A DNA stretch of 35,872 nucleotides, taken from a virus. The notes beneath the pieces were generated by a model that ran no database searches, was not told where the DNA came from, and was given only the letters and a program-made list of their open reading frames with translations. Shown here one piece after another: positions 11,078 to 30,586 of the stretch (position 1 is its first letter; each line of letters starts with the position of its first letter). A program made the position numbers and the translations under genes. The DNA is taken from positions 1-35,872 of the IMG/VR virus record IMGVR_UViG_3300050138_000093; one strand, given 5' to 3'.

Positions 11078-11425
11078 TTACTCCACCAGCTTATCAATAA
11101 GCATTTCGACCAATTTCTTATTGGTCACGCCCTCTTCGTCCTTCTCGCGCCATTTAGCCCGCGTTTTTAACCAGAAAATCATTGCTGATAGGTCATCGCC
11201 CTCTGCAGCCTTACGAAATAGTTTAGCCGCGACCTTGGCGTTGGCACGTACCACGCTGTTATCAAGCTCATCTCGATAATAACGGGTAAGCGTATCCACG
11301 GATATGCCAAGGTGATCGGCTATCTGTTCTTGAGTATTGCCAAAGCTTGTGAGCGCACCCACCTCGGCACGAGTCTTGTCGCTAGGCTCATGCGCTTTGG
11401 TGTTTTTCTTTTTAGTCGCTGCCAT
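11078..11425 (-). CDS. terS: Terminase small subunit / HTH DNA-binding protein, putative
   Basis: 115 aa with an HTH (TQEQIADHLGISVDTLTRYY) and the motif AMIFWLKTRAKWREK, which is common in small terminases. Directly upstream of terL. Confidence 0.6.
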   Translation of the reverse strand: MAATKKKNTKAHEPSDKTRAEVGALTSFGNTQEQIADHLGISVDTLTRYYRDELDNSVVRANAKVAAKLFRKAAEGDDLSAMIFWLKTRAKWREKDEEGVTNKKLVEMLIDKLVE

Positions 11426-12638
11426 CCTTGGCCTCTCTTACGGCCTGTTTGCCGCTGTAATTCTCATAGCGTTGTATTATTATATCGCAATATTTTGGAT
11501 CTAACTCCATCATAAGCGCACGACGCTTCGTCTTCTCACACGCTACCATCAAAGTGCCTGAACCTGCAAACGGATCGTAAACATACTCCCCCGGGTTCGT
11601 ATGATGGTTAATTGAACGTGCAAACAATTCTACGGGTTTTTGAGTAGGGTGCTCTGTCTTATCATCTTTTGATGATGATCCGCTTCGGTTGGGGGCGTCG
11701 CAATCCCAGACCGTTGTTTGTTTGCGATCGCCTTTCCAGTTTGACTTAGCGCCTTTCTTAACGGCGTACCAGCAAGGTTCATGCTGCCAATGGTAATTTG
11801 ACCGTCCAAGAACAAACGCTGATTTACGCCATATAATTTGTTGTTTGCACTCAAAGCCTGCATCCCTTAGGTTAGCCATAACCACATCAGTAAACGCGCT
11901 AGCGTGCCACACATAGGCTATAGCTCCGGGGAATAATACATAAGTATCGTACCAGTCCGCCCTATCATCATTTTTAACCACGTTCTTATTGTTTTTGCTA
12001 CCGTCAGGTTTGGCGGTATCACGCCATGACATATCGAGCTTAACGCCGTAAGGGGGATCGGTCACCATGGTGTTAGGGTGCTGTCCATCAAGCAAACGCT
12101 CAACATCAGTCGCAAGAGTACTGTCACCACATAACAACCTATGGTCGCCAAGAATCCAAACATCGCCCAGCGTAGAGCGGGTTTGCGCAGCGTCCGGCAA
12201 ATCATCCTCACCACAAAATACCTCCGGCAGTTCATCAGGAAATATCTCGCATAATTCTTCAAGGTCAAACCCCGTTAATGTAAGGTCATAATCAAACTGC
12301 TTAAGATAGTCAAACTGGCTTAATAAAATGTCCCTATCCCAACCAGCATCCAGTGCTATTTTGTTATCGGCAATAACCAACGCGGCTTTTTGCGCATCAG
12401 TTAAGCCCTCAAGGACAATACAGGGTAACTCATCAAGCCCGGCTGATAAGGCGGCAGCAAGCCTGCCGTGTCCGGCTATGATGACGTTATGTTCATCAAT
12501 TAAAAGGGGATTGGTAAAACCAAACTCGAGAATGGAACGAACAATCTTTGCAATTTGTTCGTCTGAATGAGTGCGGGAGTTCGCCTCATATTTGCTCAAA
12601 TCCCGCACAGAAACGCTTTTATAGTTCCGCAAGACCAT
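11412..12638 (-). CDS. ParB-like nuclease domain fused to a beta-class N6A/N4C DNA methyltransferase
   Basis: N-terminal ParBc pattern (NSRTHSDEQIAKIVRSILEFGFTNPLLID...IIAGHGRL). HRLLCGDS follows, then motif IV TDPPYG before motif I DPFAGSGT. This is the circularly permuted beta order. Confidence 0.85.
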   Translation of the reverse strand: MVLRNYKSVSVRDLSKYEANSRTHSDEQIAKIVRSILEFGFTNPLLIDEHNVIIAGHGRLAAALSAGLDELPCIVLEGLTDAQKAALVIADNKIALDAGWDRDILLSQFDYLKQFDYDLTLTGFDLEELCEIFPDELPEVFCGEDDLPDAAQTRSTLGDVWILGDHRLLCGDSTLATDVERLLDGQHPNTMVTDPPYGVKLDMSWRDTAKPDGSKNNKNVVKNDDRADWYDTYVLFPGAIAYVWHASAFTDVVMANLRDAGFECKQQIIWRKSAFVLGRSNYHWQHEPCWYAVKKGAKSNWKGDRKQTTVWDCDAPNRSGSSSKDDKTEHPTQKPVELFARSINHHTNPGEYVYDPFAGSGTLMVACEKTKRRALMMELDPKYCDIIIQRYENYSGKQAVREAKDGSD

Positions 12639-17057: not shown

Positions 17058-17477
17058 ATGCAAGATAGAGACCATACAAATGAACAAGAGCAGCAATTTT
17101 CTGAGTCCTTAACCGAGCTACAAAAAGTTAATAAGCAGCTGGCAAAGCTTCTGGTACGAAAAGAGGAATTGACAGAGCTTATTATTTCGTCGTTAGAGCA
17201 TGATCATGAGGGCCAGAAGTCGTATGAATATGGCGCTTGGAAAATTGAGGTTAAAACGCCTTTTGTTTATTCACTTAATAAAAAGTTGTATGAATCAGGC
17301 AGTGTTAAGTTACCTGATGATTTTAATCCGATTAAAGAGTCTGTATCTTACTCAGTAGATAAAAGGCTTTGTGATAAGTACATGATGGACGCCCCTAAAA
17401 AGGTTCGTGATGCGCTAGCAGAGTTAATTGATAAGAAGCCAGGCAAGGCAGGAATCACGATCAAGGAGCGAGTGTAA
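17058..17477 (+). CDS. Hypothetical coiled-coil protein, possibly Gp157-like
   Basis: 139 aa with an N-terminal coiled coil, directly upstream of the Sak4-type ATPase. That position is where Gp157-family genes sit in siphophage modules. The call is positional only. Confidence 0.35.
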   Translation: MQDRDHTNEQEQQFSESLTELQKVNKQLAKLLVRKEELTELIISSLEHDHEGQKSYEYGAWKIEVKTPFVYSLNKKLYESGSVKLPDDFNPIKESVSYSVDKRLCDKYMMDAPKKVRDALAELIDKKPGKAGITIKERV

Positions 17478-18142
17478 TGAGTAATACCGTATTGGTAATA
17501 GGTCAATCGGGGAGTGGCAAGTCCACCTCCCTGCGTAATTTAGATCCCAAATCAACGTTCATAATTAATGTTTTAGACAAACCGCTTCCCTTCAAGGGTT
17601 TCAAGAAAAACTATCAACCCATTACCAAAGAAAATAAAACAGGCAATTATTACTCAGCCAATGACTGGTCGCACGTTATCAGGGCCATAGAGATGGTTGA
17701 TAAAACACGCCCTGAAATAACCACCTTAATCATCGATGACTGGCAGTATATTTTAGCTTATGAATTTATGCGCCGAGTATCTGAAAAAGGATTTGATAAG
17801 TTTTCAGAGCTTGCAAATCACGGCTGGTCTACGATTAACGCTTGTTTAAGCACACGCCCATCCCTTACCAACTTTATTTTAGCGCATAGCGATACCGACT
17901 CCACGGGACGGGCTAAGTGTAAAACAATAGGCAAGCTGCTTGATGAAAAAATTACTCTTGAGGGATTGTTTACTACGGTCTTGCACTCACGGGTTGTTGA
18001 TGGGGATTATATGTTTCAAACTCAATCTGATAATGAGTTCTTGGCAAAATCTCCGATGGGGATGTTTGAAGAGTTCCTGATACCCAACGATTTAGTCCGG
18101 GTAAAGGGTGCGGTTGAAAATTACTTTAATGATGAGGAATAA
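17477..18142 (+). CDS. P-loop ATPase, Sak4/AAA_24-like recombination protein
   Basis: Walker A GQSGSGKST, Walker B LIIDDW, about 220 aa. Followed by an SSB-like/DUF669-type gene. Confidence 0.7.
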   Translation: MSNTVLVIGQSGSGKSTSLRNLDPKSTFIINVLDKPLPFKGFKKNYQPITKENKTGNYYSANDWSHVIRAIEMVDKTRPEITTLIIDDWQYILAYEFMRRVSEKGFDKFSELANHGWSTINACLSTRPSLTNFILAHSDTDSTGRAKCKTIGKLLDEKITLEGLFTTVLHSRVVDGDYMFQTQSDNEFLAKSPMGMFEEFLIPNDLVRVKGAVENYFNDEE

Positions 18143-18147
18143 ATAAA

Positions 18148-18750
18148 ATGAGTTTTTGGGAATCTGAGTTGGGCGAAGTTACGGGCAAGGCTGAGGATGC
18201 CTTTGCAAAATCATTTACACAAATCCCGGATGGGACGATGGCTCTAGCTAAAATTGAATCATTCGTAACCTCTGAATACAACGGCAATAAATATTTAAGC
18301 CTGCAATGGTTGTTAACTGATGGCGACTTTAAGGGCGCTAAGGTTGAACAAAAACTTAAGGTGTTCGGTGATCCAATGGCTAAGGACTCAGCCAAAGCAC
18401 GCCATAGAGCGCTTAATATGTTGAAATTGATTTATCAGTTATTCAACACCAAGCCTAAACACTCCGGAGAGCCTACCGATCCCGATTTAGCGGTATTCGT
18501 AGGAAAAGCTGCAGGTATCAAAATCCGCGAAACAGAGCCTAACGATCAGGGACGCCAATATAACTGGGTGGCTGAAATTCACGACGTTAAAGGCTTTAAA
18601 TCTGAGACAGGCACGGGACTACCACAAACAGCCTATACCTCGGTAGCCAGCTCAAGTTATAGCAGCTCACAAGGCCCTCTGGATAGTGCGTTTAGCCGAC
18701 AAGCTCAATTACCTACCGACACCAGCCTGGATGATGACGTGCCATTTTGA
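18148..18750 (+). CDS. SSB-like protein (DUF669-type position) with a canonical SSB C-terminal tip
   Basis: 200 aa with a Ser-rich flexible tail. The C-terminus is LDDDVPF; compare bacterial SSB DDDIPF. Confidence 0.6.
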   Translation: MSFWESELGEVTGKAEDAFAKSFTQIPDGTMALAKIESFVTSEYNGNKYLSLQWLLTDGDFKGAKVEQKLKVFGDPMAKDSAKARHRALNMLKLIYQLFNTKPKHSGEPTDPDLAVFVGKAAGIKIRETEPNDQGRQYNWVAEIHDVKGFKSETGTGLPQTAYTSVASSSYSSSQGPLDSAFSRQAQLPTDTSLDDDVPF

Positions 18751-18777
18751 TCAGGTTTTGTACAATTAGGATAATAG

Positions 18778-19428
18778 ATGCCCAGAGATAAGTTAAGTAA
18801 GAGGATAGAAAAGCATCAGGAGCGTAACGAGGATGATGCCAGAGATTATATCGGGGCCAGCAGTATAGGCTCCGATTGTTTAAGGCAGATTTGGTATCAG
18901 TATAAAGGAGTGAAAGCCGAGGCGGTTCCTGCGAAGTTTCGCAGGACTTGGGCGATCGGCAAGAAGCTCGAACATTTGGTTGTTGAATGGTTGACAAATG
19001 CAGGGGTTAAGGTTGACAAAACCGACAAAACCTACGCTGCAAGAAACGTGCCAATTTTTAAGGGTCATTTTGATGGATTGGTGTTTATTGGCGGTAAATG
19101 GTCGATTTTAGAGGTAAAAACGGCTAAAGATGCCAGTTTTAAGATATTTGTTAAAAAAGGGTTAAAGGTTTGGAATCCTCAATATTATGCGCAAGTGCAG
19201 TCCTATATGGGAATGAGCGGCATAAATAGTACATATATACTTGTACTAAATAAGGATAATAGTGATCTTTCCGATGAATTAGTGGTGTTTGATAAAGAAT
19301 TTTACGAAAAACTAGAGGCTAAAGCCTTAATGATTGCCACCGCAGTGGTAGCACCCCCAAAGATCCACGGCTCACCTCTTTGGTATCAGTGCAAAATGTG
19401 TAAGTTTAACAAGGTGTGTCATAAATAA
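18778..19428 (+). CDS. PD-(D/E)XK exonuclease with a Cas4-like four-Cys (Fe-S) signature
   Basis: HFDG...ILEVKTAK nuclease core. One N-terminal Cys (GSDCLRQ) plus C-terminal CKMCKFNKVC, giving C...CX2CX5C. Confidence 0.75.
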   Translation: MPRDKLSKRIEKHQERNEDDARDYIGASSIGSDCLRQIWYQYKGVKAEAVPAKFRRTWAIGKKLEHLVVEWLTNAGVKVDKTDKTYAARNVPIFKGHFDGLVFIGGKWSILEVKTAKDASFKIFVKKGLKVWNPQYYAQVQSYMGMSGINSTYILVLNKDNSDLSDELVVFDKEFYEKLEAKALMIATAVVAPPKIHGSPLWYQCKMCKFNKVCHK

Positions 19429-27886: not shown

Positions 27887-28336
27887 TTATTGGGGCCATG
27901 AAATCGTAGGGAGTCCTGCAATCACTGAGTCCACTGTGGGTATGGGTGCACCTGCTTGTACCTCACTTAAAATATTAATAGCGTAGGTAAATACAGAATC
28001 ACGCCACGCAATAAAAGCTGTGGCCTGCGCCTTCCACGTATCATTCGTGCTTAATACATAACTGGCACAGGATACCCCATCATTATATTGTTTTGATTGG
28101 GCTGTTGAGTCAATAATGGCCTGAATCTTGCTTAAACACTGTTGTTGAAGAGTATTTAATAAATAAGTATTTTCATAAGCGCTAGCCTCTGCCAATAAAT
28201 CAGACTCCAATGGTCTGGGTATATTAGGCACATTCCAATAGCCTATTAGGATATCATTATCTGGCTGGCGAAAATTAATATTTCCCGCCTCAACCTGTCC
28301 TGGGTATTTAATAATGCAAATATCAACTAAGTTCAT
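27887..28336 (-). CDS. Putative tail-fibre assembly/chaperone-type protein
   Basis: Immediately downstream of the 746-aa fibre. The C-terminal pattern NDTWKAQATAFIAWRDSVFTY...LPTISWP resembles DUF4376-type fibre assembly proteins, from memory. Confidence 0.4.
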   Translation of the reverse strand: MNLVDICIIKYPGQVEAGNINFRQPDNDILIGYWNVPNIPRPLESDLLAEASAYENTYLLNTLQQQCLSKIQAIIDSTAQSKQYNDGVSCASYVLSTNDTWKAQATAFIAWRDSVFTYAINILSEVQAGAPIPTVDSVIAGLPTISWPQ

Positions 28337-28345
28337 AATAAGTCC

Positions 28346-30586
28346 TTATATTCTGATGGCCACAATATAACCTGATCCGGTTACAGTACCTGTCGCAAAA
28401 ACCGCATACCCCTCAAGAAACACTGTGGTGGTGGTTGATACGTTCACAATTAAAACGGCTGTAGGCAGGTTAAACTGCGTGGTTACAGCAGATGATTGCC
28501 CGGAGCGTATTGAGTTATCCGGCAATGTAGCAGATGACAAACTACAAAATGAAATAGCCTGACTGATGTTAGATGTTGAACCTGCCAACGATACAACGCC
28601 CAATACAAGCCATTGGCCAGCCGTGACACTTATTTGAGTAATGTTTTTAGCCGTACTATTAGTCAAGGCCACGCCACTTGCAGCAAGGACAGCGGCGCTT
28701 ATTTGTTCCCCGTGGTATCCAGCTGGGGTTGATGATCCGCTGGTTTGTCCAAATGTGTAAACCCCTGAGGTTCCCTTAGAAGTTATTTGAATGCCAATAT
28801 TCGCATCGGATCCTATTGCACTTAAAACAGGGCTGCCCGTGCTTATGTTGTTTGCAATCTGGAAATTATTAACAGGCGTTCCACCCGATGCGGAAAACGT
28901 CAGCATTGTATTGCCGTTGGAATCTAAAAGAGAGGTTCCAATTTTGGGTGTTGGTATCGCCAAATTTGCAGGTAGTGTGGAGCTTATACTTGGCACTGAA
29001 CCTGCCGATGTAACCAATACGCCTGAGGCTGCGGTGGCCAATCCACTCACGGCTGTGCCGCTTGCCGCATACCATGCCACCTGATTGATTAATCCGCTGT
29101 TAACAGTACCTGAACCCGATGGGGCCGCCCACGTTCCATCCCCTCGCCAAAAAGTAGAGCTAGAGGCTGATGTTCCTGAGTTTAGATGGGTTACTGCTAA
29201 ATTGCCTGATACAAAAGATGCTAGATCTATAGCCGTACCATTCCAAACTCCGGTCGCTATAGTTCCAAGCGTTGTTATAGAACTCTGGCCTACATAAGAT
29301 GCCGAGATATCAATAACGGGGGTGGTTCCCCCTGTGGATGTGATCCTGTTTGTTGTACCGCTTACCGAGGTAACACCTGCAAATGTAGGAGTAGCCCATG
29401 TGCCATCACCACGCCAGAATGTTGATGAGCTAGCAGATGTGCCTGAGTTTAAGTGCGTGACGGCTAAATTACCGCTCACAAAACTGGCAAGATCTATTGC
29501 TGTGCCGTTCCACACCCCCGTAGCAATCGTGCCAAGGGTTGTTATGGAGCTTTGTCCTACATAGCTCGCGGATATATCTATCACAGGGGTCGTGCCGCCT
29601 GTTGAGGTGATCCGATTTAATGTGCCTGATACGCTGGATACCCCTGTTCCTGAAGGAGTGGCCCAAGTACCATCGCCGCGCCAGAATGTGGTAGCGCCCG
29701 CACTGGTTCCGCTATTTAGGTTAGTTACGGGTAAATTACCTGTGAATCCTATAGTTATTGCGCCGCTTACGCTGCTTATTCCAATATTTTGACCTGCAGT
29801 TAAGGTAGCAGCTGCGGGATCGGAGGCTGTGGTTCCTATTAAAACCTGCCCCGCCCCTAAAAGAACGGATGTTAAGGGCGATCCGCCTTGAGCCAACATG
29901 ACAGCATGTGGCGTGCTAGAGCTTAAAGTTAGGGCTGCAAAAGTAGGCGAGCTTCCTAACGCTATATCCTGTGGCAGGCTTAGGGTAACGTTCCCTGTTG
30001 GGGATGAGGCTATTACCTGATTGGTTGTGCCTATAATTGATAAAACACCCGCGCCAACCAGAGTATCCACATAAGTTTTATTCACGATATCCGTAGGGTT
30101 AACGGGTACTGCCGCCACCTGTCCTGATGTTAGAGCTGCTGTGGATCCGGTAATAATCGCCCCGGGTATCGTTATTGATGCGGGTAGTGTGGTACTAAAT
30201 GAGGGAACGCCCGATCCGTTTGTGATAAAAACAGAGTTTAATGCCGATATGATGGGCGATAGGGTAGTGCCATTTGCCGCATAATAAGCAATCGAGTTGG
30301 TTGTTCCGGGGTTAACCGTACCCGTACCGCTTCCGGAGAGTTCAACCCATTGCATTACAGTAGGGTTGAAATACTCATAGGTTTGTAAGTCTGTGTTTAA
30401 TCGTAGGCGATAATAAATTGCTGCCACAGGAACAGGACGACTAGATGTTGGCCCGGGGGCTAAAAATGTCCATGGGTTATTAAATAGAACGTTTGCGCCA
30501 GTTAATAGCCCGGGTACTTGGTCATTATTGGCGATGTCCCCACCAGCAGTCATTTGACTAAACTTTAAGGTTTGTATGGTCATCAC
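28346..30586 (-). CDS. Tail fibre with tandem FWRGDGTW-containing repeats
   Basis: 746 aa, Gly/Ser/Thr-rich. LNSGTSA..(S/T)[10 protein letters not shown](T/A)P occurs three times, a motif type frequent in phage fibres. Confidence 0.8.
29129..29740 (-). repeat. Tandem 267-bp (89-codon) coding repeat: two full units plus one partial
   Basis: The equivalent Trp codons sit at 29129, 29396 and 29663, so the period is exactly 267 nt. Confidence 0.9.

Follow-up and report, generated by a model that had tools for sequence, protein, structure and literature searches.

The contig considered here (IMG/VR record IMGVR_UViG_3300050138_000093, positions 1–35,872; hereafter, the window) is a 35.9-kb sequence from a JGI environmental metagenome that belongs to a tailed phage and encodes a portal protein, a major head protein, a large terminase and a scaffold protein. 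Its virion structural block contains a tail-fibre gene, which lies among the portal, head, terminase and tailspike genes in an order that is the same in three relatives (L081, L082 and L083). Within this gene, a unit of 89 codons stands twice in tandem (Table 1), and our concern is how the protein and the DNA of the two copies relate to each other. The copies share a long stretch of identical peptide on DNA in which the synonymous sites are fully randomized; this combination of near-identical protein and random codons is the norm for the module, and an old duplication under extreme constraint is its probable cause.

A perfect protein repeat with little trace in the DNA

A scripted recount places the 74-amino-acid block NRITSTGG...FWRGDGTW twice in the fibre protein, at amino acids 324–397 and 413–486, with peptides that are 100% identical. 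The codons differ at 53 of the 74 positions, and every difference is synonymous. At the nucleotide level there are 62 differences over 222 positions (72.1% identity), distributed as 7, 5 and 50 over the first, second and third codon positions, and five of the codon changes are switches of serine between the AGY and TCN boxes. The 15-codon linkers that precede the blocks in units 1 and 2 are unlike at 5 residues. The initial annotation of this DNA had claimed exactly these codon counts, with nucleotide identity put at 70–75% and amino-acid differences in the joins of about 15 residues. It had named a nonsynonymous change within the block, or an identity above about 90%, as what would speak against its reading; the recount gives zero replacements and an identity well short of that figure.

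A repeat search on the DNA recovers a 267-nucleotide direct repeat at 72% identity, and Tandem Repeats Finder reports nothing, so that the repeat is essentially invisible at the DNA level. Nucleotide-level tools will accordingly miss tandem domain repeats of phage receptor-binding proteins. The same gene holds a second, diverged internal repeat, the copies of which (30137–30349 and 28922–29137) are 50% identical over 56 amino acids (BLASTP, E = 5 × 10−17) and leave a trace at the DNA level as well.

The ratio of non-synonymous to synonymous substitution rates (dN/dS) of the two units, a comparison proposed in the initial annotation, was run with the NG86 method. It returned a proportion of non-synonymous differences of pN = 0.064 despite identical protein, together with pS = 0.88 for synonymous differences and an undefined dS. 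These values are misleading here because AGY/TCN switches are counted as non-synonymous paths. We replaced NG86 with codon identity (CI), that is, the fraction of identical codons at residues that are identical between two units, tested against explicit null models.

Table 1 Features of the tail-fibre gene and of other parts of the window
Feature	Position in window	Strand	Details
Tail-fibre gene	28346–30586	minus	746 codons from GTG; 745 amino acids from ATG one codon later, which is database protein P0001 (100% match)
Repeat unit 1, 89 codons	29396–29662	minus	Amino acids 309–397; linker 29618–29662 and 74-codon block 29396–29617
Repeat unit 2, 89 codons	29129–29395	minus	Amino acids 398–486; linker 29351–29395 and 74-codon block 29129–29350
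Partial upstream copy of the C-terminal 'junction' motif of the unit, 26 amino acids	29663–29740	minus	Amino acids 283–308
Second, diverged internal repeat, first copy, before the shaft	30137–30349	minus	BLASTP against 28922–29137
Second, diverged internal repeat, second copy, directly after unit 2	28922–29137	minus	
C-terminal beta-sandwich domain, putative receptor-binding tip	28349–28696	minus	About amino acids 631–746; AlphaFold2 pLDDT 85–93
149-amino-acid protein downstream of the fibre gene, without family match	27887–28336	minus	Conserved neighbour in relatives
Pectate-lyase-like tailspike or depolymerase, 351 amino acids	26822–27877	minus	Pfam PF12708, E = 5 × 10−14; PHROG tail and tail-spike families
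Recombination module: Sak4-like annealase (17477–18139), SSB (18148–18747), Cas4-domain exonuclease (18778–19425)	17477–19425	plus	PHROG matches at 1.9 × 10−72, 4.9 × 10−14 and 6.1 × 10−58, respectively

Synonymous sites are fully randomized

To provide an expectation, synonymous codons were drawn at random from the codon usage of the window itself (36 open reading frames other than the fibre gene). Under this null, 21.7 ± 3.7 identical codons are expected at the 71 degenerate positions of the two blocks and 18 are observed (P = 0.20). The other measures tell the same story: the nucleotide identity of the blocks is 0.721 compared with 0.726 ± 0.025 expected, serine box switches number 5 compared with 5.3, and the longest identical run is 10 nucleotides compared with 12.2. 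A permutation null gives 20.3 expected identical codons for the 18 observed (P = 0.29). By these measures, the two blocks cannot be told apart statistically from one peptide that was back-translated twice, independently. The synonymous sites are thus fully randomized, with neither residual homology nor a significant deficit below chance. The GC content at third codon positions is 0.35 in the block of unit 2 (29129–29350) and 0.49 in that of unit 1 (29396–29617). We considered this gap as a sign that the units have separate origins and rejected the idea, as the gap is reversed in L081, absent in L082 and probably noise.

Codon choice of this kind is also what a recoding algorithm would give, and the initial annotation had listed deliberate recoding among its explanations. 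We find it extremely improbable that the repeat is engineered DNA or an artefact, be it an assembly error, a chimera of two strains or a recoded synthetic sequence. The window is an environmental metagenome contig; its units are 28% apart in nucleotides, which means that an assembler can neither collapse nor confuse them; and the tandem architecture recurs, with its codons randomized in the same way, in at least 12 relatives whose sequences were assembled independently (JGI, ENA, NCBI and Logan). Moreover, orthologous copies of unit 1 retain natural residual codon similarity (see below). Given the environmental source, the divergence of the units and the recurrence of the pattern in independent assemblies, both deliberate recoding and an assembly artefact are rejected.

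An overlapping antisense gene was also tried as a source of constraint and discarded. The plus-strand open reading frames at 29085–29297, 29322–29564 and 29592–29792 are not conserved, as each synonymous change in the fibre frame alters their amino acids. Antisense open reading frames of 66–80 amino acids occur one inside each repeat unit, and appear to be by-products of composition rather than genes.

Relatives show the same pattern

Relatives were sought by scanning DNA for the tandem motif pattern, which identified 17 loci in IMG/VR and none in GTDB genomes; a scan for the single motif added only two further informative multi-unit loci. Scans of metagenomes and of IMG/VR that covered at most 600 candidate stretches yielded few close relatives. 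The DNA of the relatives was drawn from JGI, ENA, NCBI and Logan assemblies. The closest relatives, L081 (protein P0002) and L082 (P0003), have fibres that are 90% and 77% identical in amino acids to that of the window, and in both of them the two units stand at the same positions, each with its own characteristic linker as in the window (PSGTGVSS... and PTF.G.TS....). When the two units within each gene are compared, the nucleotide identity is 0.71 with 5 replacements in L081 and 0.67 with 7 replacements in L082; in both, 53 of 74 codons differ (CI 0.27–0.28). In the other genomes, units are separated by 2–10 replacements at a CI of 0.18–0.37. Relatives have between one and five tandem units per protein, mostly codon-randomized, and codon identity between units is at the random level in 13 of 17 relatives.

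The relative age of the duplication can be read from the orthologous copies. The unit-1 copies of the window, L081 and L082 have a CI of 0.44–0.52 compared with about 0.30 for random codons, whereas all comparisons of unit 1 with unit 2 in this clade are at about 0.30. Because a residual codon signal persists between unit-1 orthologues and none persists between unit 1 and unit 2, the duplication predates the clade. The fibre gene as a whole is near synonymous saturation even when compared with the relative that is 90% identical (CI 0.33–0.48).

The same holds for units of different genomes. Cross-genome units that differ by 4 residues or fewer use random codons (observed/expected ratio of 1.05, 45 pairs). 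The units L006.3 and L166.2 differ by 1 amino acid at a CI of 0.19, cross-genome pairs separated by a single residue span a CI of 0.19–0.34, and a window unit is 2 amino acids away from unit L006.2 at a CI of 0.25–0.28. Near-identical protein on randomized codons is therefore the norm for this module and not a peculiarity of the window. The statement in the initial annotation that ordinary purifying selection does not give such a pattern does not survive this comparison, as relatives commonly show it, even between units of different genomes that are 1–4 amino acids apart. Its suggestion of extreme structural constraint on an old duplication gains support, given that relatives share the two positional units, the linker signatures and the randomized codons, with 2–10 replacements.

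A large family of nearly invariant modules

A HMMER scan with one unit retrieved 8,293 cluster representatives (clusters at 50% identity) at E ≤ 1 × 10−3, of which 1,869 were at E ≤ 1 × 10−10. The window block is 3 residues away from the family consensus. The 89-amino-acid unit has no Pfam match above threshold (the best, DUF5060 at 0.0013, is below the cut-off), no credible match among PHROGs (only phrog_8584, of unknown function, at E = 4.5 × 10−5 over 31 residues) and none among PDB sequences (the best, a xylanase CBM at E = 0.04, is not credible). A protein search restricted to the unit gave nothing beyond short, uninformative fragments, and a literature search for the motif RGDGTW found no paper.

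The unit is composite. A nearly invariant module of about 47 amino acids (the A-module) is joined to several alternative continuations (GGTGVNNG...TFT, among others), and the C-terminal motif of the unit, GNL.V..LNSGT....TFWRGDGTW, serves as a junction. In the family scan, the A-module occurs up to 16 times in one protein, and P0176 (2,240 amino acids) is among the representatives with many copies. Protein P0045 has six 81-amino-acid units, which were seen at the protein level only. In L083 (1093–3336, protein P0004), the N- and C-terminal parts of the fibre are 87–88% identical in amino acids to those of the window, and the two 89-amino-acid units are replaced by an unrelated cassette of 178 amino acids with the junction motif on both sides. 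From its sequence, this locus suggests that cassettes may be exchanged at conserved junction motifs. With so large a family, an almost invariant sequence and no annotation, the module invites structure determination and could serve as a landmark when fibres are annotated.

The fibre protein and its genomic context

The identification of the gene product as a tail fibre is well supported. A protein search with the whole fibre finds more than 3,000 homologues; among GenBank phages, megablast of the gene gave no match and tblastn with the protein gave only 4 weak partial matches. AlphaFold2 (AF2) models the C-terminal ~115 residues (630–745) with confidence (predicted local distance difference test (pLDDT) of 85–93). 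Foldseek matches this domain to the N-terminal domain of the TNF-like lectin Bc2L-C, the C-terminal domain of Pgp3, the fibre CBD of cyanophage A-1(L) and the tail complex of cyanophage A4 (E = 1 × 10−4 to 1 × 10−3), with TM-scores that are modest because only one domain aligns. By these matches to a predicted model, the domain appears to resemble trimeric jelly-roll or TNF-like lectins and cyanophage fibre domains. Other fibre tips, Peptidase_S74 and Gly_rich_2, are carried by relatives.

We infer that the fibre forms a trimer. The initial annotation had proposed a structure prediction of the repeat unit; this was run with AF2 on the monomer, and the repeat region, both in the full protein and as a single unit, was modelled with low confidence (pLDDT 45–66). 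Such a poor monomer model is compatible with an obligate trimer and is no proof of one.

The Sak4, SSB and exonuclease module that the initial annotation had described is present, as judged from PHROG matches (Table 1). Elsewhere in the window (11415–12638, minus strand) is a gene for a 408-amino-acid protein with a ParB-like nuclease N-terminal domain and a DNA methyltransferase domain (phrog_498, 1.5 × 10−137; phrog_620, 1 × 10−50).

Array turnover and a probable old, constrained duplication

Proteins of the family contain 1–4 canonical units, with A-module counts that reach 5–16, and the units differ widely in age. In L169 (3001–4800, protein P0037), two units encode the same protein (100% identity) on DNA that is 97.3% identical. 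They represent a fresh duplication and show that array turnover is ongoing; they also demonstrate that near-identical units do survive assembly. Three loci (L005, L168 and L165) are intermediate, with a CI of 0.41–0.62. Among codon-randomized pairs, units of the same genome differ by a mean of 5.6 amino acids compared with 11.0 for units of different genomes, and lineage-specific residues are often common to the units of one genome, whose linkers nevertheless stay specific to position. Array turnover, by unequal crossing-over, conversion or birth-and-death, predicts this likeness of protein within genomes if the events predate synonymous saturation and purifying selection is very strong.

The explanation that we favour, and hold to be probable, is an old duplication or homogenization of an extremely constrained shaft module, comparable to polyubiquitin, in which the window represents the zero-replacement tail of the distribution. 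On this view, the trimeric phage tail fibre has a shaft module whose two tandem copies are old, having been duplicated or last homogenized so long ago that there has been time to randomize every synonymous site. Both copies would have been held at the same near-consensus optimum, such that almost no replacement was tolerated, and the constraint may be that of a trimeric shaft or of a joint module that sets the length of the fibre. Turnover of arrays across the family, by unequal recombination or gene conversion, would generate the fresh, intermediate and old duplicates and would leave the units of one fibre closer in protein to each other than to the units of other phages. Of all this, the codon counts, the randomization, the pattern across relatives and the turnover itself are established by the data.

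Several points weigh against this explanation. We only infer that the constraint is on structure, and the AF2 monomer models of the units are those of low confidence given above. Across the family, codon identity within genes is below random, which neutral decay cannot explain. The complete absence of replacements is also hard to obtain. In a survey of adjacent units (56 pairs in 141 proteins), the numbers of replacements are 0, 0, 2, 2, 2, 3, 3, 4, 4, 4, 5 and upwards, and zero differences are combined with randomized codons only in the window. Negative-binomial or Poisson fits to the other pairs give a probability of zero replacements, P(0), of about 0.001–0.002 per pair, and we estimate it at about 0.005 among close 'type A' relatives. 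A rough dN/dS (ω) of 0.02–0.05, estimated from unsaturated orthologous pairs, predicts at least 6–10 replacements at a dS above about 2.5. Finally, the window block has a single derived residue, Ala in place of Thr in GTI[A]TG. Both units carry it, on different codons (GCT and GCG) with different flanking codons, and close relatives have Thr in both units; this parallel change hints at selection for sameness.

Part of this is relieved by numbers. With thousands of family members, a handful of zero-difference cases is expected, and the initial annotation was itself selecting for extremes. Parsimony suggests that the ancestor of the clade of the window, L081 and L082 already had identical blocks and that the window has changed once per unit. 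We estimate the chance of one such parallel coincidence, given all of the opportunities in the clade, at about 40%, which is not statistically compelling.

Fewer shared codons than expected by chance

The initial annotation had also raised selection to destroy nucleotide homology. On this view, tandem units would be unstable, as recombination or slippage, to which phage annealases may contribute, could delete or re-homogenize them, and lineages with fewer in-register identical codons would survive; divergence would then be driven, or filtered, beyond neutral decay. This would account for complete codon scrambling without change in the protein, and the family offers some evidence for it. In 17 genomes with at least two canonical units, the median observed/expected ratio of in-register codon identity is 0.867, compared with 0.996 ± 0.038 in the simulated null (0 of 1,000 simulations were as low), and nine loci are at or below 0.875 compared with 3.0 expected (P = 0.001). 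A permutation null that keeps the codon composition of each unit, pooled over 13 loci, gives 445 identical codons observed compared with 519 ± 15.5 expected (ratio of 0.857), and the cross-genome control under this null is at 1.04–1.05. For the A-module, the median over 36 loci is 0.90; with three loci excluded because their residual homology is obvious, the Stouffer z is −3.0.

Within a gene, the units thus fall about 10–14% short of the identical codons that chance would give (z of about −3 to −4.8), with L009, L084, L259, L003 and L081 as examples. Differences in composition between units and assembly filters do not explain this shortfall. As neutral decay approaches the random level only from above, units below that level are not accounted for by decay. 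The ingredients for recombination are also present: the window encodes Sak4, SSB and a Cas4-like exonuclease, L081 encodes RecT, and the existence of recent duplicates implies that recombination between units occurs.

However, the shortfall is modest in size (about 14%), and the 13–33 genomes behind it are partly related; the analysis has to exclude loci with residual homology or use robust statistics, and an attempt at replication gave only two further informative loci. Taken by itself, the window has no significant deficit (18 identical codons compared with 20.3–21.7 expected, P = 0.2–0.3; longest run of 10 compared with 12.2–12.9 nucleotides). Near 72% identity, in-register runs are already short, and the benefit of further scrambling would be expected to be tiny. 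Avoidance of homology alone also leaves the zero replacements unexplained. For the window, we therefore regard it as unlikely. The proposal of the initial annotation thus finds no support in the window and weak support at the level of the family, where tandem units share fewer in-register codons than chance. The family deficit weakly supports either selection against homology or survivorship, with arrays of higher in-register identity being re-homogenized or deleted.

A broader form of this idea, possible but doubtful, is that the tandem units of phage fibres are naturally 'codon-scrambled', because annealase-promoted recombination or slippage removes or re-homogenizes the arrays that keep in-register identity. 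The arrays left over would share fewer codons in register than chance, and synonymous sites of repeated coding DNA would be selected, or filtered by survivorship, for dissimilarity. The window would then be the cleanest example, a perfect protein repeat without a detectable DNA repeat. If confirmed, the codon deficit would be evidence that avoidance of recombination shapes synonymous sites in repeated coding DNA, which is assumed in synthetic biology and hardly documented in nature.

Possible selection for sameness between units

The parallel Thr-to-Ala change raises a further explanation, in which sameness itself is selected. The units of one fibre would have to present the same surface, to a shared partner protein or glycan or for stacking within the trimer, and parallel substitutions would follow without exchange of DNA, a form of concerted evolution at the protein level. 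The different codons and flanks of the two Ala residues fit this, as a conversion tract cannot explain them. So do the units of L084, which are set apart solely by the position-specific QN/TT and have Q, L, Y, T, S and A in common, and, more generally, the lineage-specific residues that are shared on random codons and the lower number of differences within than between genomes (5.6 compared with 11.0 amino acids). However, conversions or duplications that took place before synonymous saturation would leave this pattern too, and turnover of that kind is observed directly. Parallel events account for only 1 of about 13 inferred replacements in the window clade, with none in L081 or L082. On this balance, we consider selected sameness to be quite improbable as the main cause. 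Like homology avoidance, it could nevertheless act together with purifying selection.

Comparison with known systems

The closest parallel to an old, constrained duplication is polyubiquitin, a set of tandem in-frame repeats under purifying selection for which birth-and-death and concerted evolution have been debated (PMC10457151; Sharp & Li 1987 and Nei, Rogozin & Piontkivska 2000, as summarized there). The fibre repeats resemble it in being head-to-tail and in frame, with identical or near-identical peptides and strong synonymous divergence. The copy number varies in both, there by unequal crossing-over and here between 1 and 4 canonical units with a recent duplication in L169, and repeats of one genome are closer in protein than repeats of different genomes. 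Unlike polyubiquitin, the fibre repeats remain uncleaved in one structural protein, the unit boundaries carry position-specific linkers and the host of the gene is a virus. Unlike ubiquitin in the account of Sharp & Li that the summary gives (PMC10457151), the synonymous similarity of fibre units within a genome is not above that between genomes and, if anything, is lower. Classical concerted evolution at synonymous sites does not describe the family, in which the median observed/expected ratio is 0.87–0.90 within genomes compared with 1.04 between genomes; it applies only to the four loci at which recent events occurred.

Phage tail fibres and spikes are encoded by modular, mosaic genes with conserved N-terminal anchors and exchangeable tips. 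The fibre described here is like phage fibre shafts generally in its conserved N-terminal part, central modules of variable number, exchangeable C-terminal tips (TNF-like here, and Peptidase_S74 or Gly_rich_2 in relatives) and apparent exchange of cassettes at junction motifs. It is unlike them in that the 89-amino-acid unit and the 47-amino-acid A-module have no Pfam, PHROG or PDB match and in that conservation across codon-randomized lineages is unusually high. 

Synthetic 'codon scrambling' of repetitive genes prevents recombination and allows the genes to be synthesized. The window resembles its products, as identical peptide repeats are encoded on maximally dissimilar DNA. It differs from them in that the state was reached naturally and in that codon identity in the window is at the random expectation rather than minimized. 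The value of the pattern is that of a textbook-clean viral case in which purifying selection separates the conservation of protein from that of DNA, with a perfect 74-residue repeat that DNA repeat finders do not see, together with a near-invariant, unannotated module and a hint that codon scrambling, familiar from synthetic genes, may have a natural counterpart.

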